DNA of 64,000 bases from an uncultured Chthonomonadaceae bacterium (GTDB lineage Bacteria; Armatimonadota; Chthonomonadetes; Chthonomonadales; Chthonomonadaceae), in contig CAWFQB010000005.1 of assembly GCA_963817895.1 (NCBI GenBank), positions 800,001-864,000 of the forward strand, in the 5' to 3' direction. This document shows positions 6,788-42,151 of this stretch, piece by piece (within the stretch, counting starts at the first letter, position 1; each line of letters begins with the position of its first letter). A program made the translations under genes and the position numbers. The notes below the pieces were generated by a model. It did not search any database. It was not told the DNA's origin and saw only the letters and a list, made by a program, of their open reading frames with translations.

Positions 6788-6910
6788 AAAACCACTCCAA
6801 TCAACGGATGTTTTAGATGCCTTGAAGATTTTGATGGTGTTTGTAATAGAACCTGTCTTAAAGGCGAGTTTATGAGTTTGTCGTAATCATCTAAGCCATT
6901 CCATTTCTTG

Positions 6911-7141
6911 TTATTCATTCAGGCTTACCGGACCGGATATATCCAGTAGATTCCAGTCGCAACTATAACCGTTTTCTTCTATATACACCCAATAAACCTT
7001 AAAATTGGTTTTGAGGATTGGCTCATCCTGCCACCAAAAAGCATCACATTCAGCACAAATCTTGATGGCTGTCTGGAGCGGCGTCACGAGAGCATTGACC
7101 ACATAATCTTGCGAACATCTGGGACAATCCACTTTTGACAT
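6911..7141 (-). CDS. Small Zn-ribbon (CPRC..CAEC) protein, possible immunity protein
   Basis: 76 aa, GAGG RBS, AT-richer, in array with an Imm35-like gene. Confidence 0.6.
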   Translation of the reverse strand: MSKVDCPRCSQDYVVNALVTPLQTAIKICAECDAFWWQDEPILKTNFKVYWVYIEENGYSCDWNLLDISGPVSLNE

Positions 7142-7194
7142 GCGAGTACCTCATCCACAACGGAATGTTCCAACAGCGGCGATGAAGGCTTCTG

Positions 7195-7536
7195 TTATGG
7201 CGAACGTTTAGCGCGGAGCCATTTCAAGAAACGTCGCAGGGGATTGCGGCGGCGAGTCTCGAAGCGCTTGATGTAAACCTCCGTGTTCTCTGCTGTGCCG
7301 GTAACATGCAATGAGCCATCTTCTTTATCTACAATGATCGGCGCGTTACCGTAAACAGCTTCGTTCAAGTCGCCAGTGTCCAGAAACTTCCGCGAATTGT
7401 AGAAGAACACCCAACCGTACTCCTTCGTAATGGTATGTTCGTCCATGACGACAAGGGAATTGTCAGGTTTGTATTTGTATGTATTGATGTACTCTGTGAC
7501 GAGTAACTTTGCTGTTTCTCGGTTCAGCATAGACAT
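7195..7536 (-). CDS. YrhB / immunity protein 35-like
   Basis: EYGWVFFYNSRKFL.TGD...YGNAPIIVDKEDG motif. Confidence 0.8.
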   Translation of the reverse strand: MSMLNRETAKLLVTEYINTYKYKPDNSLVVMDEHTITKEYGWVFFYNSRKFLDTGDLNEAVYGNAPIIVDKEDGSLHVTGTAENTEVYIKRFETRRRNPLRRFLKWLRAKRSP

Positions 7537-7548
7537 CTCGCATAGCGA

Positions 7549-8043
7549 TTACTTTGCGCCGACGGCCCGAAGCAAAGAAACCACTTTAGGGTCATAGCCA
7601 GTCGGCTTGAACTCCTCTTTGTCTGTTTGCAACGCCCACCATAGAGCGCTTCTGCCAAGTTTGTCATGTGCATTGACATCTGCCCCAGCGTTAATCAACG
7701 CTTTCACCATTGTCATTTGTCCGTCACTGGCAGCCGTCATCAATGCGGTCGTGCCATCTTCTTCGTACTTCGCGTTGACATCGGCATGATGCGCAATCAA
7801 GGTTCGGACTACATCCACATTCCAATTTTGTACGGCAAACATGAGCGGTGTTCTGCCATTGTCATCAGCGTTCACGTTGGCCCCCAGGTACAGCGTCAGG
7901 TTTACTACTGTCGCATTGCCGTCTTCAGCCTCATAGAAGAGAACTCCATTGACCAGGACAAAATATATCAGCAGGAGAATGAGCGTTAGCAGAAGCCAGC
8001 CTGCTCCACTATTCTTTACTTTATGGGAAACTAAGGAATTCAT
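7549..8043 (-). CDS. Membrane-anchored ankyrin repeat protein
   Basis: GRTPLMFA, GTTALMTA, GADVNA repeats after a TM helix. Confidence 0.9.
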   Translation of the reverse strand: MNSLVSHKVKNSGAGWLLLTLILLLIYFVLVNGVLFYEAEDGNATVVNLTLYLGANVNADDNGRTPLMFAVQNWNVDVVRTLIAHHADVNAKYEEDGTTALMTAASDGQMTMVKALINAGADVNAHDKLGRSALWWALQTDKEEFKPTGYDPKVVSLLRAVGAK

Positions 8044-16079: not shown

Positions 16080-16612
16080 CAAAGCGCCTCCAAAACAAGT
16101 CGGGTATCATCCTGAATACGTATGTTTTCCAGAATACCGGCAATATCTTCTTCGTCAAACCCCTCGACGCGAAGAACTGCCTCATACGTCAATTCTTTAG
16201 AAGAGTCTTTCAAATCTTCCCATTCAAGCGATGCGTGTACAACATCAGCCATCGGCCACCTGCTATGACTTTTGAAGTCTGCGAATACTTTATCTATAAT
16301 GCGGTCTTCCGCAATGGAGAGCGCGTCCGCGCCGGGGCTGCTAGAAAGGGTCACATTGGAATTTTCGGTCGTAATGTAATTTGACCAGTAGGTAGAATGA
16401 GCCTCTTCCTTGATGAGATTGTACGTTGAACTCAGCGCGGGGCCATATTTCAGCGCAAACCAACGGTCGTATGTGATGGGCTTGCCATGTTCGACAAGCA
16501 TCTGCTTATCGGCGACATAAAGCAGTTTCATCAATTGCGTATAAGGCAGGCATCCTCCGGCCAATTGCAAAAATCGCGCCGCCATCTGCGTCGTTTTGTC
16601 TTCACGAAACAT
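16079..16612 (-). CDS. Panacea (DUF4065/SocA-like) antitoxin
   Basis: LMKLLYVAD..HGKPITYD..ALKYGP..H...EW; GGAGG RBS before ATG 16612. Confidence 0.88.
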   Translation of the reverse strand: MFREDKTTQMAARFLQLAGGCLPYTQLMKLLYVADKQMLVEHGKPITYDRWFALKYGPALSSTYNLIKEEAHSTYWSNYITTENSNVTLSSSPGADALSIAEDRIIDKVFADFKSHSRWPMADVVHASLEWEDLKDSSKELTYEAVLRVEGFDEEDIAGILENIRIQDDTRLVLEAL

Positions 16613-16785
16613 GATAAACCTCCCGCCTGTTCTCTGCGCCATCCGCCCAACCCCGAATGTAAATGAATTATACCATTGTTGACGAACGAGGAGAGGGAAA
16701 CCTTGTTTTCTCCTTTTTCGTTTATTTCGCGTGTTTCGCGGTTCCCCTCTCCCTGTCTCCTTATCTCCTCTTCTCCCTGTCTGAG

Positions 16786-26758: not shown

Positions 26759-27224
26759 GTAGGGGCGCTGCTTGCTGCGCCTTTGTATCAGGATTGCGCC
26801 TTTGTTTGAGGAGGGTTCAGCAAGCAGAACCCCTACTTGTACCTTATTCTTCTACCTTTTACAACTTGAACGTTTTATTCTGAAACGCAGCAAACAAGCG
26901 TTCCGGACAGCGTTGTAAGTCTATCCAGTTGTGTCAGGGAATATCTCCTATTGCGTCCTGCTGAATAGATGACTTGCCTTCTTCTATCCGAAGCAGCGAC
27001 AACAACCTTTAGGATGCCACAAAGGAGGCAAGTCATTATGTCTCGCGCTGTAGCTGATCGTGGTGACAATCAATACCTGATACTACTCATCGTTCAGGCC
27101 CGACTACTAAACTACAGTCGTACCATCCAGAGGGGAAGGGCGCAGCAAGCAACGTCCCTACGTTGCGAAATTGTAACGCCATTCATTTTGTAGGGGCGCT
27201 GCTCGCTGCGCCCTTCCCCTCTGG
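26759..27224. repeat. GTAG-type REP cluster upstream of the RAYT gene (further copy at 27839..27865)
   Basis: GTAGGGGCGCTGCTYGCTGCGCC at 26759 and 27190; inverse copies GGGTTCAGCAAGCAGAACCCCTAC (ends 26836) and GGGCGCAGCAAGCAACGTCCCTAC (ends 27161). Confidence 0.88.
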
Positions 27225-27287
27225 GCCCTTTGCTGCTCGTTGCGCCCTTTACTTTAACGATTGTTGTCCCGCTTTGGAAAATTGACG

Positions 27288-27790
27288 ATGCGCTACGATC
27301 CTGACCGCCATCATCGCCGTTCCCTTCGACTGCAAGGGTACGACTATTCGCAACAGGGAGCCTATTTCGTCACGGTTTGCGTTCATAACCGCGAATGTCT
27401 GCTGGCGAAATCGGCAATGGAACTGTCGTTCTCTCGAAAGTCGGTCAGGCCGTCGAACAGGCGTGGCAGGAGATTGCGGAACGGTTTTCCTATGTGGCTT
27501 TGGACGAATACGTTCTCATGCCTAACCACCTGCACGGCCTTCTCGTTTTTACCGAACCCAACAAGGCAACCGCGTCTGGCAAGGCAACATTGGGCAAGGT
27601 TCTTCGCGCATTCAAGTCGCTTTCAGCGATACAGGCCAATCGGCTGTTAGACCGCGCGGAACAACCCTTTTGGCAGCGTAACTATTACGAACGTATTGTC
27701 CGAAACGAGCTGGAGATGGAGCAAACGCGCATCTACATCCGCAACAATCCTCTGCAATGGGCAACAGATGCAGAAAACCCGATGCAAGAT
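27288..27790 (+). mobile_element. REP-associated tyrosine transposase (RAYT, Y1/HUH); apparent -1 frameshift near 27404
   Basis: HHRRSLRLQGYDYSQQGAYFVTVC, MPNHLH, FKSLSA, WQRNYYERIVRN, YIRNNP. No stop before the next gene; end approximate. Confidence 0.9.
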
Positions 27791-27904
27791 GCGCCCTGTA
27801 TTTGTAACGTTTGTCTTGCAAAAGGGGGGCAGCAAAAAGAGGGTTCAGCAAGCAGAACTCCGACGCCTTGTTCTCTATGTATTTATAGAAAGGAGGGTGT
27901 TGCA

Positions 27905-28534
27905 ATGGCCTACCGCGATTTCACCCTCCCGGCACTGATCCGGCAGTTCAGCCTGACCATAGATGAAACGACCGACCTTTTTGCCGATGTGCCGGAAACA
28001 CCCCTGCGCCCGGAGTTTCAAGCGCGGCTCGGCATTATGGTTCCCCTTGCCCTCACGAATTCGACCGAAAAGGCGCGTTCCGAGTTCATCATCGCGCCCG
28101 TTCTACTGGAACTCTGGCTGCTCAAAAATCGCGAGGTCGGGCTGCTTTCCGGCGTGGAGTTCAACATAGATAGGGCGCAGGGGCTAGAGGGTGTCTGTGA
28201 TTACATCATCACCCGCTTCCCCAAACAACTTTTCATCAAGGCGCCGGTTCTGGTGGTCGTGGAGGCGAAGAACGAGGACATGAAGAAAGGCTACGCGCAG
28301 TGCGGCGCGGAACTAATTGCGGCGCAGCAGTTCAATGAGCGGGAAGGCACGACAACCGAGCGTCTCTATGGTGTAGTGACTATCGGAGAGTTATGGCGGT
28401 TCATGGAGTTGGAAGGCACAACGCTACGGCTCGATTCGCGCAGTTACCACATTGATCGCCTGCCCAAGATCATGGGTATTCTCCTGTGCCTGACCGGAAT
28501 GTACCCGTCAACAGAGAGCGCAACACAATCCTGA
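27905..28534 (+). CDS. PD-(D/E)xK nuclease-like hypothetical protein (HsdR N-terminal-like)
   Basis: AGGAGG RBS; EKARSEFIIAPVL, G.CDY, VVEAK, QC.AE..AAQ.FN, YGVVT.G..W.F. Confidence 0.75.
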   Translation: MAYRDFTLPALIRQFSLTIDETTDLFADVPETPLRPEFQARLGIMVPLALTNSTEKARSEFIIAPVLLELWLLKNREVGLLSGVEFNIDRAQGLEGVCDYIITRFPKQLFIKAPVLVVVEAKNEDMKKGYAQCGAELIAAQQFNEREGTTTERLYGVVTIGELWRFMELEGTTLRLDSRSYHIDRLPKIMGILLCLTGMYPSTESATQS

Positions 28535-28659
28535 ATGTAGCAACAGGGTGTCGGGTATCAGGTTGAGCCGTCTGGCGCGATCCGGCAGAAGCATTGACGC
28601 GCGGTTCGTTCGTTTAATCTGTAGCAGCAACACCGTCTGCGCAAAATTGCGCAATGCAG

Positions 28660-28689
28660 TTGACAGAGTGGCAAACCATGCGGTATATT
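28660..28689 (+). promoter_or_regulatory. Sigma70-type promoter of the str operon
   Basis: TTGACA-N18-TATATT about 260 nt upstream of rpsL. Confidence 0.6.
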
Positions 28690-28945
28690 GTAAAGGTTTG
28701 CAGAATGCAGCAGGCGTGGAGGACCACGCATAAGGAGGCGGGCGGGGCGGACGCGAGTTCTTTTCCCTGGGGATCACCTGGCAGGAAGTGCCATAGATGC
28801 CATCATGCCGTGTCCTTTCCTGCCATGCACGGGCAGGTTTTTTTACGTCCAACCACATCCGGTTGCTTCTGCGCCCCGCGCTTTACGGCGCAAACATCCA
28901 TTTTTTAACGCGCAAAACGGAACTCATAAAGGGGAATGGCACAGT

Positions 28946-29317
28946 ATGCCTACGATCAATCAGTTGGTCCGCAAGGGCCGCAAGCGTCTGATTAAGAAGA
29001 CCAAAGCGCCCGCGCTCAAAGGCAATCCGCAACTGCGCGGCGTCTGCCTCGTGGTGAAAACGGTCACGCCGAAGAAACCGAACTCCGCGTTGCGCAAAAT
29101 CGCCCGCGTCCGCCTGACCAACAAAACCGAAGTCACGGCCTACATTCCGGGCATCGGACACAACTTGCAGGAACACTCCGTCGTTATGATTCGCGGCGGT
29201 CGCGTCAAGGACCTGCCCGGCGTCCGCTACCATATCGTGCGCGGCACACTCGACACAGCCGGAACCCGCGACCGTAAATCCAGCCGTTCCAAGTACGGTA
29301 CGAAGAAGCCGAAGTAG
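28946..29317 (+). CDS. rpsL: 30S ribosomal protein S12
   Basis: [32 protein letters not shown]. Confidence 0.99.
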
Positions 29318-29326
29318 GAGACAATC

Positions 29327-29797
29327 ATGCCTCGTAAGGGAAAAAGTGTGCTGCGCGGGATTACGCCGGACCCCGTTTATGGCAATATTCTGGCGCAACG
29401 CTTTATCAACCGCCTGATGGTGGACGGTAAAAAAAGTATCGCGGAAAAGATTTTCTACTCCGCGCTGGAACAGTGCGAAGTTCGGGCCAAGCGTCCGGGT
29501 ATCGAAGTGTTCGAGCAGGCGATTCGCAATGTCGCGCCCGCCGTGGAAGTGCGCCCCCGCCGCGTCGGTGGCTCGACCTATCAGGTTCCGACCGAAGTGC
29601 GGCCTGAGCGCAAGTATGCTCTCGCGTTGCGCTGGCTGGTCACGAACTCCCGCAAGCGGGCAGGTCGCACGATGGCTGAAAAGCTGACGGGCGAACTGAT
29701 GGACGCCGCGAACGGAACCGGCTCGTCGGTAAAGAAAAAAGAAGACGTGCATCGCATGGCCGATGCCAACAAAGCGTTTGCGCATTATCGGTTTTAG
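29327..29797 (+). CDS. rpsG: 30S ribosomal protein S7
   Basis: RRVGGSTYQVP, HRMADANKAFAHY. Confidence 0.99.
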   Translation: MPRKGKSVLRGITPDPVYGNILAQRFINRLMVDGKKSIAEKIFYSALEQCEVRAKRPGIEVFEQAIRNVAPAVEVRPRRVGGSTYQVPTEVRPERKYALALRWLVTNSRKRAGRTMAEKLTGELMDAANGTGSSVKKKEDVHRMADANKAFAHYRF

Positions 29798-29800
29798 GAG

Positions 29801-29937
29801 GGTGATTGGTGGTTGGTGGTTGGTGACTGGTTACTTCGTTCAGAAAGACGTGTCCGTGAGCTTCAAGGCTGTAACCGACACGCTAAACTTTCGCTTTGAA
29901 CAACCAATCATCAACCACCAACCACCAACCACCAATC
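29801..29937. repeat. Inverted pair of TTGGTGG heptamer arrays after rpsG
   Basis: GATTGGTGGTTGGTGGTTGGTGA ... TCAACCACCAACCACCAACCACCAATC. Confidence 0.9.
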
Positions 29938-30411
29938 TTGTGCCTCAAATTGCCCGGCACGAGGAGGATAGTATGTTGTACAATATGAGAGCAAGTTGCC
30001 GTATGGCGCGGCGCTCATTTCGCTGTCGAACGGGGTGTCTTCGGTAGGCCAATCGGCGGTTTGCGCGCGTAAAAGCGGCAAATCCGTTCGGAACATGAAA
30101 AGGTGACTGGAACAACCGGGGACGGCAGATTGCCGTTCTTTGTTGCGAAAGCCTCTTTTCTTTCGATATGTTCTGTACGCGGCAGTCAGCGCGCAATGGG
30201 AAGCGGTTACGCGCCGCCCGATTGGCAGTACGGGTTCCATTCTGTACCTATGGGGAATTCTTTTCCCGATTTGGATGAATGTTCAGCCCGCAACTTACCG
30301 TGACACTCGTATATGGCAGCGAGTGGCATGTATTTTCCTTCGCAACACTCGGAAGCAATTTGAACGCCGCCTGTGTCGGACGACCGGGCGAGGATAGACA
30401 AGAACGAAACT

Positions 30412-32538
30412 ATGGCACGAGAATACCCTTTAGAGAAAATTCGCAACATCGGCATTGCGGCTCACATTGACGCCGGCAAGACCACCTGTACCGAGCGCAT
30501 CCTGTTCTATACCGGGCGCACACACCGCATCGGCGAAGTGCATGAGGGCGCGGCCACAATGGACTGGATGACGCAGGAGCAGGAGCGTGGCATCACCATT
30601 ACGTCTGCCGCTACCACCTGTTTCTGGGGCCTGAATACCGATCCCGCCACGATGGCGCGCGAACGTTCGCACCGTATCAACATCATTGACACGCCCGGAC
30701 ACGTAGACTTTACCGTTGAAGTTGAGCGTTCCATGCGCGTTCTGGATGGCGTTGTCGCCGTCTTCTGCGCAGTCGGCGGCGTACAGCCGCAGTCCGAAAC
30801 CGTGTGGCGGCAGGCCAACAAGTACAAGGTTCCGCGCATCGCGTTCGTCAACAAAATGGATCGCATGGGCGCGAACTTCTTCGGCGTTGTCGAAAAAATG
30901 CGCGAACGGCTGGGCGCGAACGCGGTTCCGATCCAGATTCCGATTGGCGCGGAAGCCGAGTTCCTGGGCGTTGTTGACATCATTACCATGAAGGCCATCA
31001 AGTACCACGACGATCAGGGCCAGACCTATGACGAAGTGGACATTCCCGCCGACCTGGTGGATGTGGCGAACGAATACCACACCAAAGTGATCGAAGCGGC
31101 AGCCGAAGCCGACGAAAGCCTGATTGAAAAGTACCTGGAAGGCCAGCCGATTTCCGTGGACGAAATCCGCAACGCCCTGCGCATGGGAACCATTGCCGGC
31201 ACGGTAATGCCCGTCGTGTGTGGTTCGGCCTACAAGAACAAGGGCGTACAGCAACTGCTCGACGCGGTCCTGTACTTCCTGCCGTCCCCTCTGGATGTCA
31301 GCGGCATTCCCGGCATCAACCCGGACAAAGGCACGGAAGAGACGCGGCAGCCTGCCGACGATCAGCCGTTCAGCGCCCTCGCGTTCAAAATCGCGCAGGA
31401 TCAATACGGCGTCCTGACGTTCTTCCGCGTGTATTCGGGAACGCTCAAAACGGGTGAAACCGTGCTGAACTCCACTCGCGACCGCAAGGAGCGCATCGGG
31501 CGGATCGTGCGGATGCATGCCAACACCCGCGAAGACGTGAGCGAAGTGAACGCGGGCGACATCGCGGCCATCGTAGGCTTGAAGGATACGCGCACCGGAG
31601 ATACCCTGTGCGACGATAAGAAACCGATTGTTTTGGAAGCCATTGACTTTCCGGAGCCGGTTATCTCCATCGCCATTGAGCCGAAAACCAAAGCGGATCA
31701 GGACAAGCTCTCCACCGCGCTGGTGAAACTGGCAAGCGAAGACCCGACGTTCCATGTGTCTACCGATCCGGAAACGGCGCAGACCATTCTGGCCGGTATG
31801 GGCGAACTGCACCTGGACATCAAGGTTGACATTCTGAAACGCACGTATGGCGTGGAAGCCAACTTCGGCGCGCCGCAGGTGGCGTACCGCGAAACCATCG
31901 GGCAGCATGCCGTGGCGCGCGTTCCGTTCAAGCGGCAAACGGGCGGTTCCGGTCAGTACGGCGACTGTGAGCTGGAAGTGGACCCGCAGGAACCGGGCAA
32001 GGGCTACGAGTTCGTCAACAAGCTGACGGGCGGCTCGATCCCGAAGGAATTCGTTCCCGCCATTGAAAAGGGCGTGAAGGAAGCCTTGGAAGCGGGCGTG
32101 ATTGCCGGCTACCCGGTTGTGGACGTGAGAGTGTCCGTAACCGACGGCTCATACCACGAAGTCGACTCCAGCGAAATCGCCTTCAAAGTGGCCGCCAACC
32201 AGACGATGAAGGAAGCCCTGCGCAAAGGACGCTCGTACATCAAAGAGCCGATTATGGCAATTGAAGTGACCACGCCCGAAGCCAACATGGGCGACGTGAT
32301 CGGCGACATCAACCGTCGGCGCGGTCAGGTGGAAGGCATGGAGCCGGAGCCGGGCGGCAAGCAGGTTGTGCGCGCGCAGTGTCCCCTGTCCGAAATGTTC
32401 GGGTACGTGAACGATCTGCGCGGGTTTTCGCAGGGCCGCGCGTCCTTCACCATGACGCCCTCGCACTACGCGGAAGTGCCGCGCAACGTGGCGGAAGAGA
32501 TCGCCGCCAAGAGCGGCAAGCAGCCCGTCAAGGCATAG
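30412..32538 (+). CDS. fusA: Elongation factor G
   Basis: [43 protein letters not shown]. Confidence 0.99.
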
Positions 32539-32550
32539 CGCAGTAACTCA

Positions 32551-32592
32551 GGGAGTAAGGGGCAGTTGTCTGTCCCTTACTCCCGTTTCTTT
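32551..32592 (+). terminator. Intrinsic terminator after fusA
   Basis: GGGAGTAAGGGGCAG/CTGTCCCTTACTCCC stem followed by GTTTCTTT. Confidence 0.8.
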
Positions 32593-32681
32593 GCTTCTTA
32601 TATTTTTGCCTGATGAAGTTTGTTTCCGGCGTTGATACCGCGCGTTCACACGACGCGCTTTGTGCCTGTCTGGATGCGTGA

Positions 32682-33182
32682 ATGACTCTCCTGACGCGAC
32701 TGGCTGTTAAAGAACCCTTTGAGACATGGCCGGATATGGAACTTGCCGCAACAGAACGCTATTGGGACGGCCTGGCATTAGCGGCACATGACCTGTCACG
32801 CAATACAGGGGCGGTCTACTGTTTCGGCTACGTTGTCGAGATGTTGTTAAAGGCAGCGTACTTTCGCGTTACCGGTGTGGCAGATACGCAGAACTTAAAT
32901 GCAGGGCCATTAGCTGCTATGCGAACGCAGGCCGCATGGCGCGGACGTAATTTACACGATTTGCAAGGGTTAGCCAGTCTGTTGATTGACGTGAGGCAGG
33001 CGCTTGGCATTGCGTTTGATCCCGCTGTGGCCGCGCAAATGCTGTGGTATGTACTCACAGTGGATTCTCATTGGAGAGAAACCCTGCGCTACAAGCACAC
33101 TCCCGCGCTGGAAGAAGAGCTGCATGAGGTGTATTACGGTGTAGAGTGGATTTGGGAGCATCGTAATTTGTTGTGGAGTTAA
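32682..33182 (+). CDS. HEPN-domain-like protein
   Basis: R..D...L..GAVY..GYVVEMLLKA, RGRNLHDL, W.E.LRY. Confidence 0.75.
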   Translation: MTLLTRLAVKEPFETWPDMELAATERYWDGLALAAHDLSRNTGAVYCFGYVVEMLLKAAYFRVTGVADTQNLNAGPLAAMRTQAAWRGRNLHDLQGLASLLIDVRQALGIAFDPAVAAQMLWYVLTVDSHWRETLRYKHTPALEEELHEVYYGVEWIWEHRNLLWS

Positions 33183-33185
33183 ACC

Positions 33186-33500
33186 ATGCCGGTAATTAGA
33201 ATTCATCCAACAGTTCCGCAAGCCCCGCCGGAGTTAGTAGCCGCGCTTGCCGACGAGTTGCGGCGTAATGAGGTGGATGGGCCGGAAGACGCGCCGCATA
33301 TTGTTGAGGAAGAAGCCCTGCGCGGCAACTACTTTGCGGTCAAAGTGATATGGGATGCCTGGAAAGGTCTTGACCCGGAACTCCGTAGTCGCGCCATCAT
33401 GGATGCTTACAATCAAGTGAGGCCGGAAGATGTGTCTCACATCAGCCTTGCAATCGGTTTTACCCATGCGGACGCGCAACGCTTCAATATCGCTTCCTGA
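33186..33500 (+). CDS. Small hypothetical protein, BolA/KH-like pattern, putative HEPN partner
   Basis: VKVIWDAWKGLDPELRSRAIMDAY...IGFTHADA; starts 3 nt after the HEPN stop. Confidence 0.65.
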   Translation: MPVIRIHPTVPQAPPELVAALADELRRNEVDGPEDAPHIVEEEALRGNYFAVKVIWDAWKGLDPELRSRAIMDAYNQVRPEDVSHISLAIGFTHADAQRFNIAS

Positions 33501-33515
33501 AGCAGAGGTGGTCCA

Positions 33516-34112
33516 ATGTCTAAGATCAAACCAGACTGCGACCAATCCGCGCCCTTTCTGATGTGGGTTGAAGAGATTACAAGGCTACGCCGCGATATTT
33601 GCCTTGTGATTGGGCTTGTTGAGCGCGGGAAATTAGAACTTAATGCGCGTATCGAAGTTGTAGGCGGACAATCCGTTCAACAGGCGCGTATCGCAGACAT
33701 TGAACAGTTCTACAAAAAACAAACTGTTATGCGTTGTGGAGAGCAGGCAGGTGTTCTTCTTAGGCCGACGCCCAAAAAAATAACTCAAGATTGTGTCATT
33801 GCTGCGCCGGACAGTATTCAGGCATGTACAAAATTTCGCGGCAATATACAAGTCGTGAACGAAGCGGAAGGCAGCGGCAAACCTGTCTTCCTTACAGGCG
33901 AAGAAGTTCAGTTCTTCTTTCGTAATATTTATGTGCCGGGAACTTATACGTTCCTTGATGGTTTCGATTCGACAGTATCCGAGAACAGAGTGATTCTGAT
34001 TTGTACGCTTACTCGCCCTGTTGCCATGGAAGAAGGACAAGAGTTTACCGTCTATAGCAACGGGAGAGTTGTTGGAATAGGTAAGGTTGTCGAACTGATT
34101 ACGAAAAGTTGA
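33516..34112 (+). CDS. Divergent EF-Tu domain II+III protein lacking the GTPase domain
   Basis: Colinear with the EF-Tu C-terminal half: PFLM.VE, G.VERG, IEQF.K, GE..GVLLR, TKF, EG, QFFFR, TL..PVAMEEG..F, GRVVG.G.V; own GAGG RBS. Confidence 0.85.
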   Translation: MSKIKPDCDQSAPFLMWVEEITRLRRDICLVIGLVERGKLELNARIEVVGGQSVQQARIADIEQFYKKQTVMRCGEQAGVLLRPTPKKITQDCVIAAPDSIQACTKFRGNIQVVNEAEGSGKPVFLTGEEVQFFFRNIYVPGTYTFLDGFDSTVSENRVILICTLTRPVAMEEGQEFTVYSNGRVVGIGKVVELITKS

Positions 34113-34129
34113 GCTTCTGGAGGAACAAA

Positions 34130-34375
34130 ATGCCGGAAGAAGCTAATATGGCGGCGGATTGGCTCAAACAAGCTGCCGCCGAACGTGGAATGGCAGACAG
34201 GTTCAGCGCCACGTATATGCGCGCTGACAGAGAATGGTTATATTTCGCGGTGCGGCTGAGTAACGCAGGTGATGCTTCGGAAAGAGCAAATTTATTGCTT
34301 GATCTGGAAGACGCCTGGGAGTCTCACGAACCGAACCCGCGCTGGCATTTGATGTTGATGCCTTCCGGCGCGTAG
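34130..34375 (+). CDS. Small hypothetical protein (paralog of 35053..35346)
   Basis: GGAGG RBS; WLKQAA...LEDAW.SHEPNP..HL.L.P. Confidence 0.75.
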   Translation: MPEEANMAADWLKQAAAERGMADRFSATYMRADREWLYFAVRLSNAGDASERANLLLDLEDAWESHEPNPRWHLMLMPSGA

Positions 34376-34514
34376 GAAGCGCGCGATTGACCGATAAACC
34401 AACAGTCGGCTTTATTCCTGCAAATGAAGCCGAACTGATTGCGAAAAATTGAGGTATAATAGCAAGCCGGTCTGCGGACAACGGATGCCCGACCGGTTTT
34501 TGCTTTGACTATGG

Positions 34515-34613
34515 TTCAGGTATTCAGGTATTCAGGTATTCAGGTATTCAGGTTAGGCGCAATTCCTTCCTGTACACCTGAATACCTGAATACCTGAATA
34601 CCTGAATACCTGA
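34515..34613. repeat. Inverted pair of TTCAGGTA octamer arrays in the rpsJ leader
   Basis: (TTCAGGTA)x4+ ... (TACCTGAA)x4+. Confidence 0.93.
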
Positions 34614-34630
34614 CACAGAAAGAGGTACTA

Positions 34631-34951
34631 ATGCCACCCCTCGGACGACAGGACAAGGTTCGCATTCGCTTGCGGGCTTTTGACCACCGCATCCTGGACC
34701 AGTCGGCAGAAAAGATCGTGGATACCGCCAAGCGCACGGGCGCGCGCGTGGCCGGACCCGTTCTTCTTCCGACCGAGAAGCTGATCATCTGCGTGAACCG
34801 CAGCACGACCATTGACAAAGAGAGCATGGAGCATTTCGAGCAACGGACGCATAAGCGCCTGATTGATATTCTCGAACCCGGCCCCAAAACCATTGACGCG
34901 CTGATGCGCCTCGATCTGCCGAGCGGCGTTGACATCGAAATAAAACTGTAG
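34631..34951 (+). CDS. rpsJ: 30S ribosomal protein S10
   Basis: [39 protein letters not shown]. Confidence 0.99.
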
Positions 34952-35052
34952 GCGCAACGTTTATGGAACTCTGGCAGCAATGGTGGATGCTGGCGCAGTA
35001 ATCGGTTCATCACGGCTCAGATAGAAGCGATTTTGCCGAAAGAAAACTAGCA

Positions 35053-35346
35053 ATGGCTGATTTGTTGGAGAAACCAGTCCGGCTGGATCTCGATGCGCTT
35101 CACGCCTGGCTAGAGCAAGAGGCAAAAGCGCAAAACATTCAGGCATATTTCGCAATCCGAAGCGCGAAGGTGCTTGAGGATGGCTACCTTAAATTGCCGA
35201 CCTACATCGGCAATCCAGGAACTGCCTTTGAACAGGTGGTCTTGATGGGAAACCTTGAAGACGCCTGGAACGATCAGGAACCGAAGCCTGAGTTTAAGCT
35301 GCACCTCTACCCGATGGGCAAGCCCCGCGAGTGGAGCAGCGAGTAG
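35053..35346 (+). CDS. Small hypothetical protein inserted between rpsJ and rplC (paralog of 34130..34375)
   Basis: WLEQEA...LEDAWNDQEPKP..KLHLYP. Confidence 0.75.
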   Translation: MADLLEKPVRLDLDALHAWLEQEAKAQNIQAYFAIRSAKVLEDGYLKLPTYIGNPGTAFEQVVLMGNLEDAWNDQEPKPEFKLHLYPMGKPREWSSE

Positions 35347-35367
35347 AACGAGACACGAGGAGAAACT

Positions 35368-35997
35368 ATGGCGGTCGACACAATTCTGGGCAGAAAAATT
35401 GGCATGACCCAGGTCTTCAATGACCGGGGCGAAATCGTGCCGGTTTCCGTGATAGAAGCAGGCCCCTGCATTGTCACGCAGCTCAAAAGTGTTGAAAAAG
35501 ATGGCTATGTAGCTGTCCAGGTCGGGTTTGGCGAGATACGCCCCCGGCTTGTCAACAAACCGGAAACGGGGCACTTCACCAAAGCAGGCGTCACGCCCAC
35601 GCGACACCTGCGCGAAATCCGCACCGAGGACACGAGCGCGTACAAACTGGGAGATGCGATTACATGCGACATCTTTGCCGTTGATCAGCGCGTCAAGGTG
35701 ACGGGTATATCCAAAGGCAAAGGTTTTGCCGGCGTTGTCAAGCGCTTCCACTTTCATGGCGGCGATATGACGCACGGCTCGATGATCCACCGCAAGCCGC
35801 AGTCCAGCGGCGCGACCGATGCGGCCCGCACGTTCAAGGGGACCCGAAAACCCGGGCAGATGGGCAACAAGCAGGTGTCGGTGCGCGGATTGCGCATTGT
35901 GCGCGTGGATGCGGCACAGAATTTGCTGCTAATAGAGGGAGCCATTCCCGGCTCCGATGGCGGCCTTGTGACCATTCAGCGCCTGGCGCGACGTTAG
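35368..35997 (+). CDS. rplC: 50S ribosomal protein L3
   Basis: GRKIGMTQVF, SKGKGFAGVVKR. Confidence 0.99.
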   Translation: MAVDTILGRKIGMTQVFNDRGEIVPVSVIEAGPCIVTQLKSVEKDGYVAVQVGFGEIRPRLVNKPETGHFTKAGVTPTRHLREIRTEDTSAYKLGDAITCDIFAVDQRVKVTGISKGKGFAGVVKRFHFHGGDMTHGSMIHRKPQSSGATDAARTFKGTRKPGQMGNKQVSVRGLRIVRVDAAQNLLLIEGAIPGSDGGLVTIQRLARR

Positions 35998-36011
35998 GGA
36001 GACAACACATC

Positions 36012-36767
36012 ATGGCAAGCATAACATTAATGAACCAGGAGGGCGGCCAGGTTGGCGCGCTCGAACTGCCTGATGCGGTCTTCGGCGTCGAATACAATCA
36101 GGCGCTCGTCCATCAGGCTATCGTGTCCGAAGAGGCCAATCAGCGGCAGGGCACACACAACACTAAACAACGCTCCGATGTGCGCGGCGGCGGACGCAAG
36201 CCCTGGAAGCAAAAGGGGACGGGACGCGCCCGACAGGGTACGATTCGCGCCCCGCAGTGGCGTGGCGGCGGCGTTGTCTTTGGTCCGCACCCCCGTGATT
36301 ACCGCAAGGCGTTTCCTGTAGCGATGCGGCGCGGCGCAATGCGCAGCGTCCTTTCGGAAAAAGTCCGCGAAGGCAACATCATCGGTCTGGACGCGCTCAC
36401 GTTCGCGGAAGCCAAAACCAAAAACGCGGTCGCATTGCTCAAAGCGCTGAACTTAGGCAGCGAGAAGCATGTGCTGATCGTGGTTCCCGAACACAGCGAT
36501 ATGCTGCGGCGGGCTACGCGCAATCTGGAAAGCCAGGGTCTGGAACTTCGGTTCGCGCCCAACTTCTCCGTGCGCGACGCGCTGTTGGCGACCAAAATCG
36601 TCCTCGTGCAAGACGCGGTTGCTAAAATCGAAGCCGTGTGGAATTCCAAGAGCAAGCAGAAGACAAACAACGCGCTGGGCGCGCAGGATGAAACCGCCGA
36701 AGAAGCGGCTGCCGTTCTGACGGAAGACTCTACAATGGGAATAGAAGGAGCGGAGGTGTCCGCATGA
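36012..36767 (+). CDS. rplD: 50S ribosomal protein L4 with acidic C-terminal tail
   Basis: [26 protein letters not shown]. Confidence 0.99.
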
Positions 36768-37096
36768 GAAACGTACACGAAATCATTATTCGTCCCCTGA
36801 TGACGGAAAAAAGCACCATTCAGGCGCAGCAGAACAAATACCACTTCAAAGTGAATCCGACGGCCAACAAGATCGAAATCGCCGACGCGGTGGGCATTAT
36901 ATATGCCAACGCGGGCGCGAAAGTGCTGTCGGTTAATACCGTTCACGTCAAAGGCAAGAAAAAGCGGGCCATGAGCAAGGGCGGCAAGCCCGGCTATTCA
37001 CCCAACTGGAAAAAAGCCATCGTGACAACCGACAAGCCTCTCGAACTCTTCGATTTTATGAATCAGGAGACGGATGACCAGGGAGGACAGGTGTAA
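36764..37096 (+). CDS. rplW: 50S ribosomal protein L23
   Basis: [21 protein letters not shown]. Confidence 0.97.
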
Positions 37097-37098
37097 CC

Positions 37099-37959
37099 AT
37101 GCCCATTCGTCACTACAAACCGAATACGCCGGGAACCCGCTTCCGCTCCGTTGCCACCCATACGGAACTGACAAAGCAGGAGGGCAAAAACCAGCCCGTT
37201 CGCCCGCACAAACCCCTGCTGGAGCCGATCAAAAAGAGCGGCGGACGCAACAACAAGGGGCGTATCACGTCACGCTTCCGGGGCGGCGGCAACAAGCGCA
37301 TGTACCGGATCATTGACTTCAAGCGCAACAAGTACGATATGCCCGCAGCGGTCCGAACGATTGAGTACGATCCCAACCGCACCTGCCGTATCTCTCTGAT
37401 AGAGTATGCGGACGGCGAAAAGCGCTACATCCTGACGCCCATCGGCATGAAGGTCGGCGATACCGTGATTGCCAGCGAAACCGCGGACATTCGGCCCGGT
37501 AACAGCCTGCCTTTGTACGCCATTCCCGTCGGCACAGTGATCCACAATGTGGAACTGCATCTGGGCAAGGGCGGCCAACTGGTTCGCTCCGCCGGTGTGG
37601 GCGCGCAATTGATGGGCAAGGGCAGCGGCAGCAAGTTCGGTCAGGTGCGCCTGCCTTCGGGCGAAACGCGCCTGATCCTGCTGACGTGCCATGCCACTAT
37701 CGGACAGGTCGGCAACCCCGAACACGAGAATATCTCGTACGGCAAAGCGGGCGCAACCCGATGGCGCGGACGACGCGGCCATGTGCGCGGTATTGCCATG
37801 ACCCCACGCGATCACCCGCATGGTGGCGGCGAAGCGCAAAGCCCCATCGGACGCAAAAAAGGTCCGGCTTCGCCCTGGGGTAAACCCGCCATTGGCGCCA
37901 AGACCCGCCGCAACAAGGCGACGGACAAGTTCATTATTCGCCGACGAAATAGCAAATAG
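37099..37959 (+). CDS. rplB: 50S ribosomal protein L2
   Basis: [23 protein letters not shown]. Confidence 0.99.
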
Positions 37960-38074
37960 GGAGTAGGGAGTAGGCAGTAGGGAGTAGGTAAATGCCCTGT
38001 TCCATTAACTCTTAAATCAAGAGTGTAGTAGGTAGTGTATTTACCTACTTCCTACTCCCTACTCCCTACTCCCT
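37957..38074. repeat. Inverted pair of TAGGGAG heptamer arrays, rplB-rpsS
   Basis: Array starts at the rplB TAG stop; right arm CCTACTTCCTACTCCCTACTCCCTACTCCCT ends at the rpsS RBS. Confidence 0.93.
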
Positions 38075-38083
38075 GGAGTTACC

Positions 38084-38371
38084 ATGGGACGTTCACTCAA
38101 AAAAGGACCGTATGCCGATCCCAAGCTGCTGGAAAAGGTGCGGGGCATGAATGCGCGCAACGAAAAAAAGGCCATCAAGACCTGGTCGCGCCGCTCCACC
38201 ATTTTCCCCGACTTTATCGGTCATACCATGCTCGTACACGATGGGCGCAAGCATATTCCGATCTTCATCACTGAAAACATGGTCGGGCACAAGCTGGGCG
38301 AATTCGCCGCAACGCGCCTTTTCCGTGGACATGCCGGACAGCAGGTGGAACGCCGCTCCGGCGTCAAATAG
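38084..38371 (+). CDS. rpsS: 30S ribosomal protein S19
   Basis: [24 protein letters not shown]. Confidence 0.99.
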
Positions 38372-38389
38372 AAAGGGACGCGAACCGTC

Positions 38390-39262
38390 ATGTCTGATGA
38401 TACGATAGACTCGAACGTGGCCGTTATGGAACGCCCGCGTCAGCACCGCGAAAACCGCAAAAAGAATATCGGGCGCAAAGTGGCCCCCAACCAGGCGTTT
38501 GCCGTCGTCAAGTTCATCCGCGTGCCGCCGCGCAAAGCGCGGCTGGTTATCAACGAAGTGCGCGGCAAGTACACCAACGACGCGCTGGCGTTTCTGCGCT
38601 TTATTCCCAACCGCGCGGCAGGTTACATCTCCAAAGTGCTGTATTCCGCCGTCGCCAACGCCGCCAACAATCACGGCCTGAACCCGGACAACCTGAAGCT
38701 GGTGGAAGCCCGCGTGGACGAAGGCCCGCGCATGAAGCGCGTCCAGCCCCGCGCACAGGGGCGGGCGTACCGCATCCTGAAGCGCATGAGCCATATCACA
38801 GTTGTTGTGGAAGAGGTCGGTCCCAAGCCGCGCAAGCCGAAAAAGGCGGGACGCCGCAACCAGCAGCCCGGTCGCCAACAGCAGGCCGCTCCGATGACAA
38901 CGGCGGCCCCGGTCAGCATTGCGGAAGATACGGAAATCACCACACCGGTAACGGCAGTGGAAGATACCGCGTCCGCCGCAGTGGCAGCCGAGGCGACAAC
39001 GCCGGTCACTCCGACAACGGAAACAACCACATCCGCGAGTGAAGCGACGGCAGCGCCGGAAGCAACACCCGCCACTGCTGACGTGCCGGAAGGTCCGCAA
39101 ACGGCGAACCCGGCAGCCACGGACGAAATTGGCGCGCCGACCACGCCGGACGCAGTGGAACCGACAATCGCCTCCACGGATGGCGACGTAACCGGCGATA
39201 CGCAGGCGGAAACCGCCAACACTCAGGACAAAACCGACGAAATCGGAGCGCCGACGGAGTAG
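38390..39262 (+). CDS. rplV: 50S ribosomal protein L22 with long Ala/Thr/Glu/Pro-rich C-terminal tail
   Basis: PRKARLV, SAVANA, DEGP, PRAQGRA..ILKRMSHITV; 290 aa. Confidence 0.97.
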   Translation: MSDDTIDSNVAVMERPRQHRENRKKNIGRKVAPNQAFAVVKFIRVPPRKARLVINEVRGKYTNDALAFLRFIPNRAAGYISKVLYSAVANAANNHGLNPDNLKLVEARVDEGPRMKRVQPRAQGRAYRILKRMSHITVVVEEVGPKPRKPKKAGRRNQQPGRQQQAAPMTTAAPVSIAEDTEITTPVTAVEDTASAAVAAEATTPVTPTTETTTSASEATAAPEATPATADVPEGPQTANPAATDEIGAPTTPDAVEPTIASTDGDVTGDTQAETANTQDKTDEIGAPTE

Positions 39263-39267
39263 GAGGG

Positions 39268-39390
39268 AAGATACGAGATACGAGATACGAGATACGAGTG
39301 GGGAACTATAATTCCGCGTTTTCTCGGTTCAGGGAATACAGTGTAGGATGGTCTTTTCACTTGTATCTTGTATCTCGTATCTCGTATCTT
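39268..39390. repeat. Inverted pair of GATACGA heptamer arrays, rplV-rpsC
   Basis: (AGATACG)x4 ... TTGTATCTTGTATCTCGTATCTCGTATCTT. Confidence 0.93.
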
Positions 39391-39409
39391 CTGCCTCTCA
39401 GGAGAGACT

Positions 39410-40657
39410 ATGGGCCAGAAAGTACACCCAATCGGATTTCGAATCGGCGTGATTCGCGACACGGAGAGCAAGTGGTATCTCCCGAAGCGCGGTTTCGCCG
39501 ATGCCGTATATGAAGATTACAAGATTCGCCGTTATATCAAGAAGCACAAAATTCTTGCCAACGCCGCTATTTCCCGCGTGGAAATCGAGCGGGGCGGCAA
39601 CCGCGTAAAAGCCACGCTGCACACCGCCAAACCCGGCATCATCATCGGGCGGCAGGGGCAGGGCGTGGACAACCTGAAAGCCGAACTGGAAAAGTTGACA
39701 CAGAAACAGGTGCATGTTTCAGTCAATGAAATCCGGCAGCCCGATCAGGACGCGCAGCTCGTGGCCGAAAGCATCGCGCAGCAGATCGAAAAGCGCATCG
39801 CGTACAAACGCGCCATGCGTCAGGCGGTTCTTCGCGCCATGAAACTGGGCGTCAAGGGTATCCGCGTGATGTGTTCCGGGCGGCTCGCGGGCGCGGAAAT
39901 GGCGCGCAAAGAGCAGGATCGCCAAGGCAAAATTCCGCTTCACACCCTCCGCGCCGACATTGACTACGGCTTTGCCGAAGCGGCAACCACGTATGGCAAC
40001 ATTGGCATCAAAGTGTGGATTTACAAGGGCGATGTTCTGCCGGGACAGGCGCGGCAAACGGAGTCCGAGCCGGCTCGCCCGCAGCGCGGCGATGGCCGCC
40101 CGGATCGTTCCGGCGAACGGTCGGACAGCGGACGTGGCGGTGATCGCGGCGGCAGGGGCGGCAGAAGCGGTGGCGGCGGTGATCGCGGCGGACGCGGTGG
40201 CGGCGGCGGTGGACGCGGCGGCCAGGGTAGCGGCGGCTTTAGCGGCGGCGGTGGTCAAGGCGGTGGCGGCTTCAGTGGCGGTGGCGGTCGCGGCGGTCAA
40301 GGCGGCGGTGGCGGCTACCAGGGCGGCGGTCAAGGCGGTCAGGCTGGCGGTCAGGCCGGACCTGCCCGCACCGGCGGACGCGGCGACGGCTTTGGCGGCG
40401 CGGCGCAGGGCGGCCCGCGCGCGCAGGGTACGGGCGGCAGTCGTCCAAGTGGCGGGGGCGGCGGCACAAGCCGACCGGGCGCAGGTGGTGGGCCGAGCGG
40501 CGTACCGGGCGGCGGCGGGCGACCTGCCGGCGAGCCGGGGCCGCGCGCCGATGTGAGTGGAACCGGGCGCGAGGCGCCCCAGGGTCATCAGGATCAACGC
40601 GGGGGCGCAGGCCCCGGCGGCGGTCATCCCAACGACAATCCTACACCGAACGAGTAG
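39410..40657 (+). CDS. rpsC: 30S ribosomal protein S3 with about 200-aa Gly/Arg-rich tail
   Basis: [38 protein letters not shown]. Confidence 0.98.
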
Positions 40658-40670
40658 GTGCAAGGCAATG

Positions 40671-40760
40671 CAGGCTTCAGGTTTCAGGTTTCAGGTTTCA
40701 GGGAAATGCTCTCGTTGTAGAAGGCTTATCCTGACACCTGACACCTGACACCAGAAACCT
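40671..40760. repeat. Inverted pair of TTTCAGG / CCTGACA heptamer arrays, rpsC-rplP
   Basis: TTCAGGTTTCAGGTTTCAGGTTTCAGG ... CCTGACACCTGACACCTGACACCAGAAACCT. Confidence 0.9.
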
Positions 40761-40789
40761 ACACGTTGCTGCATGGAGGAATCTCAATT

Positions 40790-41278
40790 ATGTTGATGCC
40801 GAAGCGCGTGAAACACCGCAAACAGCATCGTGGACGCCGGAATGGTACGGCGTCGGGCGGAACGGAAGTCTCTTTTGGCGATTTCGGATTGCAAGCGCTG
40901 GAGTCCTGCTGGATGACGGCCAACCAGATCGAAGCCGCGCGTATCGCGATGAACCGCTATATCAAGCGGCAAGGTAAAATCTGGATTCGCATTTTCCCTG
41001 ATAAGCCGTTTACCAAGAAGCCGGCGGAAACCCGCATGGGTTCCGGTAAGGGCGCTCCCGATGGCTGGGTCGCGGTTATCAAGCCGGGGCGCGTGTTGTT
41101 CGAGATGGGCGGCGTGGCCGAGTCAGTGGCGCGGGAAGCGATGCGTCTGGCCGCGCACAAATTGCCCATTCATACCAAGTTTATCCTGCGGGACACACCG
41201 ACTGCGGTTGTAGATGAATTGGATGCCGGGGAAGCGGCCAAAGTGCTGATGGAGGGCGATGACAATGGCGGAGCTTAA
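40790..41278 (+). CDS. rplP: 50S ribosomal protein L16
   Basis: [27 protein letters not shown]. Confidence 0.99.
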
Positions 41279-41495
41279 AATCAAACAGGTGCGCGAACAT
41301 CTGCGCCAGATGAGCGTTGACGAACTTCATCAGGAGATCGCCGCGAACAAGGCGCTGCTGTTCGATTTTCGCCGCCGTCAGGCCATGCGCCAACTGGAAA
41401 ACACGGCGGCCATTCGCAACGCGCGCAAGCAGATCGCCCGCGCCTTGACGATTATACGAGAGCGCGAAATCGCCGCTCAGGGAGAAACGAAGTAG
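41265..41495 (+). CDS. rpmC: 50S ribosomal protein L29
   Basis: [20 protein letters not shown]; synteny. Confidence 0.95.
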
Positions 41496-41497
41496 CC

Positions 41498-42151
41498 ATG
41501 TCAGACGAAACAGTAAACTCGGTGGCAACGCCCGTCGAGACGGAACCGACGGCTGCTGCGGTCACTGCTCCCGAAGCGACGCCTGCGGAAGAGGCCATCG
41601 GCGTCTTAGCGACACCCAACGCGGAAGCGGCAACGGAAACATCGGAAACGGAACCCGTGACTACGGAAACCACCACAGCCGAAACCAATGCTGGAGAAGC
41701 CGGAACGACAGATGCGCCTATGGCAGTGGAAACGCCCACAGCGGAACCGGCGGCTGCCGCTCCCGCCCCGGTTGTGGCTGCGCCCACGCCTCCCAAAGCG
41801 AAGGCGAAAGCAACGGGCGGTGGTTCGGCGCAGTCCAAACTGTCCGATCCCGCCAACGACTTGAACATCATTCATTTCGAGGGCGACAAGAGCGATACGG
41901 AGCGCGGGCGGCGTAAAGTTCGCACCGGGCGCGTGGTCAGCAGCAAAATGCAGAAGACTGTTGTTGTGGCTGTGGAAACGCGCAAGCGTCACCCGCTATA
42001 CGGCAAGTTCATGCGCCAGACGGCGAAGTTCAAGGCCCACGACGAGCAGAATGAGTGCGGCGAGGGCGATACCGTGGAAATCATGGAAACTCGTCCGCTG
42101 TCCAAAGACAAGAACTGGCGCGTTATCCGTATCATAGAAAAAGCGAAGTAG
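41498..42151 (+). CDS. rpsQ: 30S ribosomal protein S17 with about 130-aa acidic N-terminal extension
   Basis: [35 protein letters not shown]. Confidence 0.97.

Follow-up and report, generated by a model that had tools for sequence, protein, structure and literature searches.

Few bacterial proteins are as conserved or as abundant as elongation factor Tu (EF-Tu), whose domains II and III hold most of its contacts with tRNA. Here we describe a gene that encodes these two domains without the GTPase (G) domain, found at positions 33516-34112 of the forward strand in a stretch of 64,000 nucleotides (nt; hereafter the window) from an uncultured Chthonomonadaceae bacterium (assembly GCA_963817895.1, contig CAWFQB010000005.1, positions 800,001 to 864,000). 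Our preferred explanation, which we hold tentatively, is that its product would be a free-standing, binding-only look-alike of EF-Tu with a new or narrowed partner, most likely playing a role in biological conflict.

Domains II and III of EF-Tu constitute a docking platform to which phage proteins, toxins of the contact-dependent kind and one or more immune sensors recurrently attach. A tryptic fragment of EF-Tu comprising both domains (D2-3) is stable and uses its domain 2 to bind the CdiA-CT toxin (PMC5737660); the Gol peptide of phage T4 binds domains II and III, triggering Lit (PMC3014915); and Avs7, a sensor of the STAND class (signal transduction ATPases with numerous domains), incorporates EF-Tu by means of the same two domains (PMC13581612). 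The fragment present in the CdiA-CT/CdiI(NC101) complex (PDB 5I4Q, PMC5737660), of about 24 kDa, resembles the predicted window protein in being a two-barrel piece with a docking surface and no G domain, but it was made by a protease in the test tube from normal EF-Tu, whereas the window piece is gene-encoded, diverged and inherited. Likewise, the partners in the Avs7 and Gol/Lit systems bind the part of EF-Tu that is kept in the window; those systems employ the normal EF-Tu of the cell, and no Avs7, Lit or STAND gene lies near the window gene. Full-text literature searches, mostly at the level of listings, turned up no description of a heritable, selected EF-Tu devoid of its G domain.

An intact EF-Tu-like gene without G domain at the tufA position

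The window open reading frame (ORF; 33516..34112, +) is intact, starts with ATG and encodes 198 amino acids (aa). A Shine-Dalgarno-like GAGGTGG ends 4 nt before the start codon, and the ORF is located between fusA (30373-32538) and rpsJ (34631-34951). The absence of a full-length tuf between these two genes had been reported, together with the intact ORF and its ribosome-binding site, in an original prediction made from the letters alone, and our reading agrees with it, as it does for the motifs IEQF and GVLLR, for the Val found at the alignment position of Escherichia coli T382, and for a composition richer in AT than that of fusA (GC content 0.461 vs 0.599; GC at third codon positions, GC3, 0.427 vs 0.760). 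Neither stops nor frameshifts occur in the window ORF or in the five homologues described below.

Profile searches bore out the suspected domain content. With Pfam, GTP_EFTU_D2 matched residues 31-83 (31.8 bits, gathering score 30.3) and GTP_EFTU_D3 matched residues 100-194 (46.1 bits, cut-off 27), and no match was obtained for the G domain (GTP_EFTU, PF00009), which includes the P-loop and switch regions. The EF-Tu models of NCBIfam aligned ORF residues 5-195 with profile positions 202-395 (E 1e-31 to 1e-33), leaving profile positions 1-201 without counterpart; the scores reached 108-117 bits against whole-protein cut-offs of 449-522, and the equivalog TIGR00485 was missed with 110.1 vs 522.4 bits. 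No G-domain remnant was detected by tblastn between fusA and the window ORF (best E 0.066).

Compared with EF-Tu as defined by TIGR00485 and by PF00009, PF03144 and PF03143, the window ORF has homologous domains II and III, the same predicted fold and the tufA position; it differs in the lack of the GTPase domain, in its low identity (35%), in GC3 (0.43 vs 0.79) and in the replacement of contact residues. Because it has no G domain, the product cannot work as an elongation factor. The identification as a G-domain-less EF-Tu draws on the ORF itself, Pfam, NCBIfam, a structural model, a tree and selection tests.

Homologues and distribution

A search for stand-alone homologues, which had been proposed along with the original prediction, recovered from protein collections five further intact proteins of the same build, 183-204 aa long and 39-81% identical to the window protein: P0002 (183 aa, 81%), P0003 (204 aa, 74%), P0004 (203 aa, 60%), P0006 (197 aa, 41%) and P0154 (196 aa, 39%). 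Five of the six members share a new N-terminus, MSxxxPxCDxSAPFLM, which begins about 13 residues before domain II, and P0002 starts only at Met16, the Met that follows this motif. The stand-alone form was found in 1 of 42 genomes of the family and in 1 of 401 genomes sampled across the phylum, in both cases the window's own genome. Viral, phage and plasmid collections yielded only ordinary tuf genes below 60% identity, or nothing, and the 24 metagenome-contig loci reached by searching for the DNA of the homologues were all ordinary tufs with 33-50% identity.

No RNA data set was listed for the stretch. Contigs of three DNA runs cover parts of it, none of them across 33258-33975, and every run that has matching contigs carries a soil metagenome label, in small shares. 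Mis-assembly or a frameshift of a normal tuf would be compatible with the lack of any read set that spans the 5' junction or covers that interval, yet we assign it a practically negligible probability. The protein is only 35% identical to the host EF-Tu, five other assemblies contain the same truncated form, the locus has a syntenic counterpart in a related genome (G002), no remnant of a G domain precedes the ORF, and independent contigs of low depth, obtained from two soil runs, agree with 33976-34126 and 34055-34271 at every position. The mis-assembly that the original prediction had named as a possible refutation is itself close to being refuted.

Origin from the tuf of the host lineage

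The real tuf of the cell, the sole full-length copy in the genome, is placed on another contig (G000:C10:82361-83554(-)), where it scores 697 bits against a cut-off of 522 and adjoins genes identified by eye as secE and nusG. Over the common part, the window protein is 35% identical to this host EF-Tu, whereas pairwise identity among the tufs of the family is 80-97%. When a maximum-likelihood tree was built from the domain II-III part, all six stand-alone proteins grouped in a single clade (support 100/99), nested in a sub-clade (99/99) of the family's own tufs to which the host tuf also belongs. The path from the node of that sub-clade to the window protein amounts to about 3.2 substitutions per site, and the tuf tips to 0.007-0.09.

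Two genomes of related genera, G005 and G013, carry two tuf copies each. One copy lies immediately upstream of rpsJ and forms part of a compact fusA-tuf-rpsJ-rplC row into which no ORF of 90 aa or more has been inserted. Given the nesting in the tree and the tuf found at the same site in these two genomes, the window ORF represents the remains of the str-operon tuf copy, truncated once; it descends from the lineage's own tuf. The original prediction had named a decayed copy of the host tuf as the outcome that would speak against a maintained protein: derivation from the tuf of the host lineage is indeed what the tree displays, and five intact homologues speak against the decay. Within the genus to which the window belongs, the row has been invaded: in the window's genome (G000), genes of 166 and 104 aa stand between fusA and the window ORF, and one of 81 aa follows it; the G002 row contains the 104-aa gene, then a decayed EF-Tu piece and a decayed 81-aa gene.

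Selection on the stand-alone protein

Neutral simulations with substitutions only were started from the window gene, with 1000 runs for each of five observed divergences, and the frame remained open in 15.8%, 7.3%, 2.6%, 0.4% and 0.7% of them, indels being uncounted. Retention of the host-tuf residue was scored by conservation class across 73 EF-Tu rows, and decreased from 0.77 at the 32 positions conserved in at least 90% of rows to 0.34 at 119 intermediate and 0.13 at 43 variable positions (Spearman 0.49 between retention and EF-Tu conservation, p 3e-13), with the same trend in each domain. The window protein alone keeps the ancestral residue at 24 of 32 conserved and 4 of 43 variable positions (Fisher p 5e-9). 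Substitutions in a pseudogene are blind to structural importance, and this graded retention sets the stand-alone proteins apart from that behaviour.

Within codons 1-20, the window ORF and the G002 copy differ at 15, 10 and 35% of first, second and third positions, respectively. Divergence within the group has been episodic, as P0001-P0003 are 27-42% identical to P0004 in domain II and 76-77% identical to it in domain III, and the reverse pattern occurs between P0004 and P0154 (64% in domain II, 39% in domain III). In our reading, the fold is under selection, and the sequence patterns suggest a real but weakly constrained, dispensable protein. The five intact homologues, the non-random retention of residues and the rarity of open frames under neutrality agree with the maintained protein that had been supposed at the outset.

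Rewritten surfaces and predicted structure

Numbered by alignment to E. coli TufA, residues N273, R288, R318, H319, R377, E378 and T382 are replaced in all six members, and D216, F218 and T228 in four of them, including the window protein, whose changes are D216E, F218T, T228I, N273Q, R288Q, R318G, H319K, R377Y, E378S and T382V. These positions we take to line the aminoacyl pocket and to contact the 5' phosphate and the T stem in aminoacyl-tRNA (aa-tRNA). Three motifs, GGRHTPF, RTTDVTG and MPGD, have also been rewritten, and 34 positions conserved in at least 75% of EF-Tu sequences are kept in no more than two of the six members.

A stand-alone module binding aa-tRNA or tRNA through the canonical EF-Tu surfaces, a role suggested in the original prediction, could build on the large share of tRNA contacts held by domains II and III and on E215, E259 and the GxxAGxLL segment, all of which are kept. 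We nevertheless regard such a module as very unlikely, since six of the presumed contact residues (N273, R288, R318, H319, R377 and E378) are lost from every member, D216, F218 and T228 are lost from four, and there is no G domain to close the pocket; moreover, the isoelectric point, which is 6.0-6.4 for the corresponding segment of tuf, has moved to 4.8-5.7, and five of the six members contain fewer basic residues. Canonical aa-tRNA binding by the window protein thus appears unlikely, because contact residues are replaced (ten positions in total), motifs are rewritten and the protein is more acidic. Conversely, 31 residues that neither tuf has, including C8, C74, C163 and K190-I195, are conserved in at least five of the six members, and this set of fixed derived residues would point to a new or narrowed binding role.

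AlphaFold2 returned a two-barrel model of the window protein with a predicted local distance difference test score (pLDDT) of 90.8 and a predicted template-modelling score (pTM) of 0.85, from an alignment of 79 rows. Foldseek aligned this model with EF-Tu structures at template-modelling scores (TM) of 0.82-0.89, and with the isolated domain 2-3 fragment 5i4q_C at 0.82/0.87. EF-Tu complexes with GE2270A, pulvomycin, enacyloxin and thiomuracin analogues are among the matches of this fold search, which, together with the soil labels of the matching runs, would agree with a sponge for antibiotics that target EF-Tu domain II or its interfaces (thiopeptides, elfamycins) in a soil organism. We consider this role highly improbable: the window offers no biosynthetic or resistance context, the residues of the domain II pocket are among the most changed, and interface binders need domain I.

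A second family without G domain

A second G-domain-less family comprises P0025, P0180, P0181 and P0182, of 196-197 aa and 70-75% mutual identity, which are 59% identical to the host tuf of that family and retain EGGRH, PGD and other EF-Tu motifs. P0025 (196 aa) is encoded in a metagenome-assembled genome of Aggregatilineales (Chloroflexota; L075 352-8188), between two EAD8/TIR-NACHT-FGE-sulfatase genes of 1100 and 1269 aa, with an intact fusA-tuf pair elsewhere in the same genome; it is the only such case among 151 genomes sampled from its order, in which two more short frames proved to be ordinary broken tufs. Its locus is the one locus read for the family; P0180, P0181 and P0182 are metagenomic proteins. 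Like the window family, the P0025 family is truncated at the same domain boundary and has several intact members; unlike it, it belongs to another branch of the tree, has an independent origin and does not occupy the tuf position. A further difference from the P0025 and Avs7 settings is that no STAND/NACHT NTPase is found beside the window ORF, as judged from the Pfam scan of 53 window ORFs. The location of P0025 between TIR-NACHT genes makes the conflict reading more than a guess, and a link of G-domain-less EF-Tu to STAND proteins, coming from one locus, is a lead rather than a finding.

On this basis a generalization may be considered, albeit a doubtful one: on repeated occasions, bacteria might have converted a surplus tuf copy into a mimic consisting solely of domains II-III and use it in conflict systems, the window and Aggregatilineales families being two instances. 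Such a mimic could act as a decoy, sequestering toxins or phage proteins directed against EF-Tu, or else as a dedicated sensor or scaffold subunit serving immune proteins, as a gene-encoded counterpart of the EF-Tu of Avs7 and of the Lit-cleaved Gol-EF-Tu. The window family would then represent the case that lies in a ribosomal operon, amid toxin-antitoxin-like cassettes.

Ordinary broken tufs (G089:C4, G196:C8 and the G002 copy) share with the window ORF the loss of a redundant tuf copy. They are split by frameshifts or stops, and those of G089:C4 and G196:C8, which belong to secE-nusG-type (tufB-type) loci, are still near normal EF-Tu, in contrast to the window ORF, which is intact and highly diverged and has intact relatives. 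In one genome of an order related to Aggregatilineales, a tuf beside a nusG-type gene (by eye) is split into pieces of 136 and 188 aa (L103 5989-7176), and in a second (L102, ~6300-7600) the tuf match beside another such gene has an open frame of no more than 224 aa; errors of assembly or recent pseudogenization could explain either case. Other metagenomic proteins lacking the G domain have larger architectures: P0005 and P0007 alternate ribosomal L7/L12 C-terminal domains with D2-D3 units, PASTA being present in P0005 only; P0009, P0012 and P0019 have an N-terminal hydrophobic segment (by eye) followed by tandem D2-D3 units; and P0024 has a D2-D3 unit with a long C-terminal extension.

Proposed mechanism and the case for a relic

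In the mechanism that we favour, the str-operon tuf copy (tufA) would have lost its GTPase domain in the ancestor of a small clade, and an unrelated two-gene cassette would have taken the former place of that domain. A new start codon would have been fixed about 13 residues before the PFLM motif that opens domain II, allowing the two beta-barrel domains to be retained as a free-standing protein of about 200 aa. Selection still protects the fold, with the presumed aminoacyl-tRNA surfaces rewritten and three cysteines and a C-terminal GKVVELI fixed. The data show what the protein is, where it came from, its truncation, selection at the level of the fold, the replacement of tRNA-contact residues and repeated loss. 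Binding, and a partner to be bound, are what we infer for this protein: toxins, phage proteins or immune sensors that attach to domains II-III of EF-Tu may meet it as a decoy or adaptor, the decoy idea being a plausible one that gains indirect support from the literature cited above and from the second family, and it would be a dispensable look-alike that is being lost in some relatives.

Several results weigh against this proposal. The DNA of the five intact homologues was absent from the genome and metagenome contig collections searched. The overall rate of change is about 40-100 times that of tuf, in the range expected with most constraint gone. Of two sister species, G002 has a pseudogene at the same place, disrupted by 10 stops and by several indels that shift the frame, and G001 has none of the 166-aa gene, the 104-aa gene, the EF-Tu piece and the 81-aa gene, nor any remnant of them; the EF-Tu piece has been lost twice in the genus, by decay in G002 and by absence in G001. 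Differences between domain III of the window ORF and that of the G002 pseudogene are near-even by codon position (16, 20 and 26%), and GC3 has dropped from 0.785 in the D2-D3 part of the host tuf to 0.427, neighbouring accessory genes being at about 0.55, a fall that fits weak expression or weak codon selection. Columns conserved in at least five of the six members number 79 of 198, without excess over the 84 +/- 7 of an equal-rates model. The confident AlphaFold2 model leans on an EF-Tu-rich alignment (73 of the 79 rows), and with four close family sequences alone it becomes unusable (pLDDT 40). Finally, no STAND/NACHT or other recognised defence gene was identified with Pfam among the 53 window ORFs scanned.

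These results bring up a slowly dying relic, that is, a truncated tufA copy without function of its own whose frame has not yet been hit. The G002 pseudogene and the absence from G001 would be expected of it, as would the very long branch, a GC3 close to the 0.438 of the G002 pseudogene, and the lack of an excess of conserved columns. We deem it rather unlikely, as six frames remain intact at 39-81% identity where neutral survival amounts to 0.4-16% per comparison with indels excluded, the retained residues are enriched at fold-critical positions (24/32 vs 4/43), and even deeply branching members preserve the common new start and the derived residues.

Neighbouring genes and other elements of the locus

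The upstream flank, fusA (EF-G; 30373..32538, +), is a 721-aa ORF recognised by eye and through a match with the G-domain profile of EF-Tu, and relative to its G002 orthologue it has a synonymous divergence (dS) of 0.30 and a nonsynonymous to synonymous ratio (dN/dS) of 0.042. Right after it there is a terminator-like hairpin (32551..32584, +) with a 15-bp stem, 9 GC pairs and a T-rich tail (free energy -34.2 kcal/mol, z -6.7). The two cassette genes follow, the first encoding 166 aa (32682..33182, +) and pairing with the 104-aa family, and the second encoding 104 aa (33186..33500, +), with a G002 orthologue 91% identical.

The original prediction took the 166-aa neighbour for a HEPN protein and the EF-Tu piece for its possible cofactor. 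HEPN domains are characterized by an Rx4-6H motif. The 166-aa protein contains RETLRYKH, but its His is not kept in four homologues, the invariant part being W..x..RY; no match was found in Pfam, NCBIfam or PADLOC, with none to HEPN at E values up to 1, and the hhalign probability against the Pfam-HEPN proteins of G001 and G002 was 0.3%. A HEPN (PF05168) identity is not supported by these results, nor is the cofactor role, as the 166+104 cassette also recurs without the EF-Tu piece. A language-model look-up places the 166-aa protein near a cluster in which 12% of members have HEPN, which serves as a lead only.

Paralogues of the 104-aa gene (26-32% identity) adjoin 166-family genes in G000:C14, G017, G023 and G015, and the cassette is found between gap and pgk, without the EF-Tu piece, in the window's genome itself and in three other genomes of the family (L049 898-1743; L047 925-1833; L046 1480-2316; L048 847-1824). 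Its products measure about 150-190 aa, with invariant GY..EM..K.AYF and W....RY, and about 105-112 aa, and neither gene is named by Pfam, NCBIfam or PADLOC. We considered and discarded the 104-aa ORF as a relic of the C-terminal part of the G domain: BLASTP gave E 6.6, its paralogues are paired with 166-aa genes, and tblastn showed no gain across the ORF; that it is in the same frame as the EF-Tu piece is taken as chance.

Downstream of the window ORF, an 81-aa ORF (34130..34375, +), with a probable ATG start at 34130 after GGAGG, belongs to a small '...LEDAW..EP.P' family, as seen in an alignment with five paralogues, and its G002 orthologue is decayed. A second member of this family, of 97 aa (35053..35346, +), lies between rpsJ and rplC and is 86% identical to its G002 orthologue (dN/dS 0.175). 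In G001 and G002, the space between rpsJ and rplC contains a Pfam-HEPN gene of 133 aa and, after it, between one and three small ...LEDAW..EP.P paralogues (L029 7224-8586; L034 2024-2681), and the window keeps its two LEDAW genes (34130-34375, 35053-35346) without a HEPN partner.

The tight spacing of the window ORF, which only 15 nt separate from the preceding 104-aa ORF and 17 nt from the 81-aa ORF that follows, would suit a protein that acts as partner of either the 81-aa gene or the 166-aa plus 104-aa cassette, and the joint decay of the EF-Tu piece and the 81-aa gene in G002, where the 104-aa gene is intact, points the same way for the former. Such a partnership is, in our estimate, quite improbable, given that the cassette stands between gap and pgk in four genomes without the EF-Tu piece, that the 104-aa gene is under strong purifying selection (dN/dS 0.081 against its G002 orthologue) where the EF-Tu piece is dead, and that in other places the partners of 81-aa gene relatives are Pfam-HEPN genes. 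The 166+104 and LEDAW genes have the appearance of small, independent cassettes settling between genes of high expression, and they are not obviously partners of the EF-Tu piece.

PADLOC gave no matches for the window ORF and four window neighbours, and only the 133-aa protein of G002 matched HEPN_IX. Rfam, applied to 27000-41500, returned no family at gathering score, with only sub-threshold miRNA-like matches on hairpins, and a scan for sigma-70-type promoters found no site in 32400-35500. Just upstream of rpsJ, a hairpin is formed by two inverted arrays of an 8-nt unit (34515..34613, +; -76.7 kcal/mol, z -13.6); rpsJ itself (S10; 34631..34951, +), the downstream flank, is 96-98% identical to its G001 and G002 orthologues (dN/dS 0.032). 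Hairpins of inverted arrays occupy five spacers of the ribosomal row (29801-29935, 34515-34613, 37957-38074, 39269-39390 and 40671-40764), each with two inverted arrays of a 7-8-nt unit in 4-5 copies, the unit being different in every spacer, and G002 has a similar repeat-built hairpin from another unit.

Elsewhere in the ribosomal row, a 379-aa ORF just upstream of rpsL (27395-28534) has an N-terminal part that matches IS200-like/REP-associated tyrosine transposases (26.8 bits in Pfam; 53.5 bits in NCBIfam, under the cut-off) fused to an unassigned C-terminal half. Two genes identified by eye, rplV (L22; 38390-39262) and rpsC (S3; 39368-40657), have low-complexity C-terminal tails, a long Thr/Ala/Pro-rich one in the former and a Gly/Arg-rich one of about 200 aa in the latter. 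Upstream of the row (7198-8043, 13663-15138 and 16082-16642), the window contains a homologue of the immunity protein Imm35 beside an ankyrin protein, the RNA-repair methyltransferase Hen1, and SocA/Panacea, an antitoxin-domain protein.

Biological significance

Even if the window gene were only a long-lived relic, it would still document the dismantling of a redundant tuf copy and the order in which this may proceed: a small cassette inserted, the G domain lost, the rear domains surviving, and decay in some lineages. Should the window protein prove to be a decoy, or an immune subunit dedicated to that task, bacteria would offer an example of host-target mimicry, and a protein of 200 aa would provide a simple handle on the agents that attack or read EF-Tu in phyla that have been little studied.

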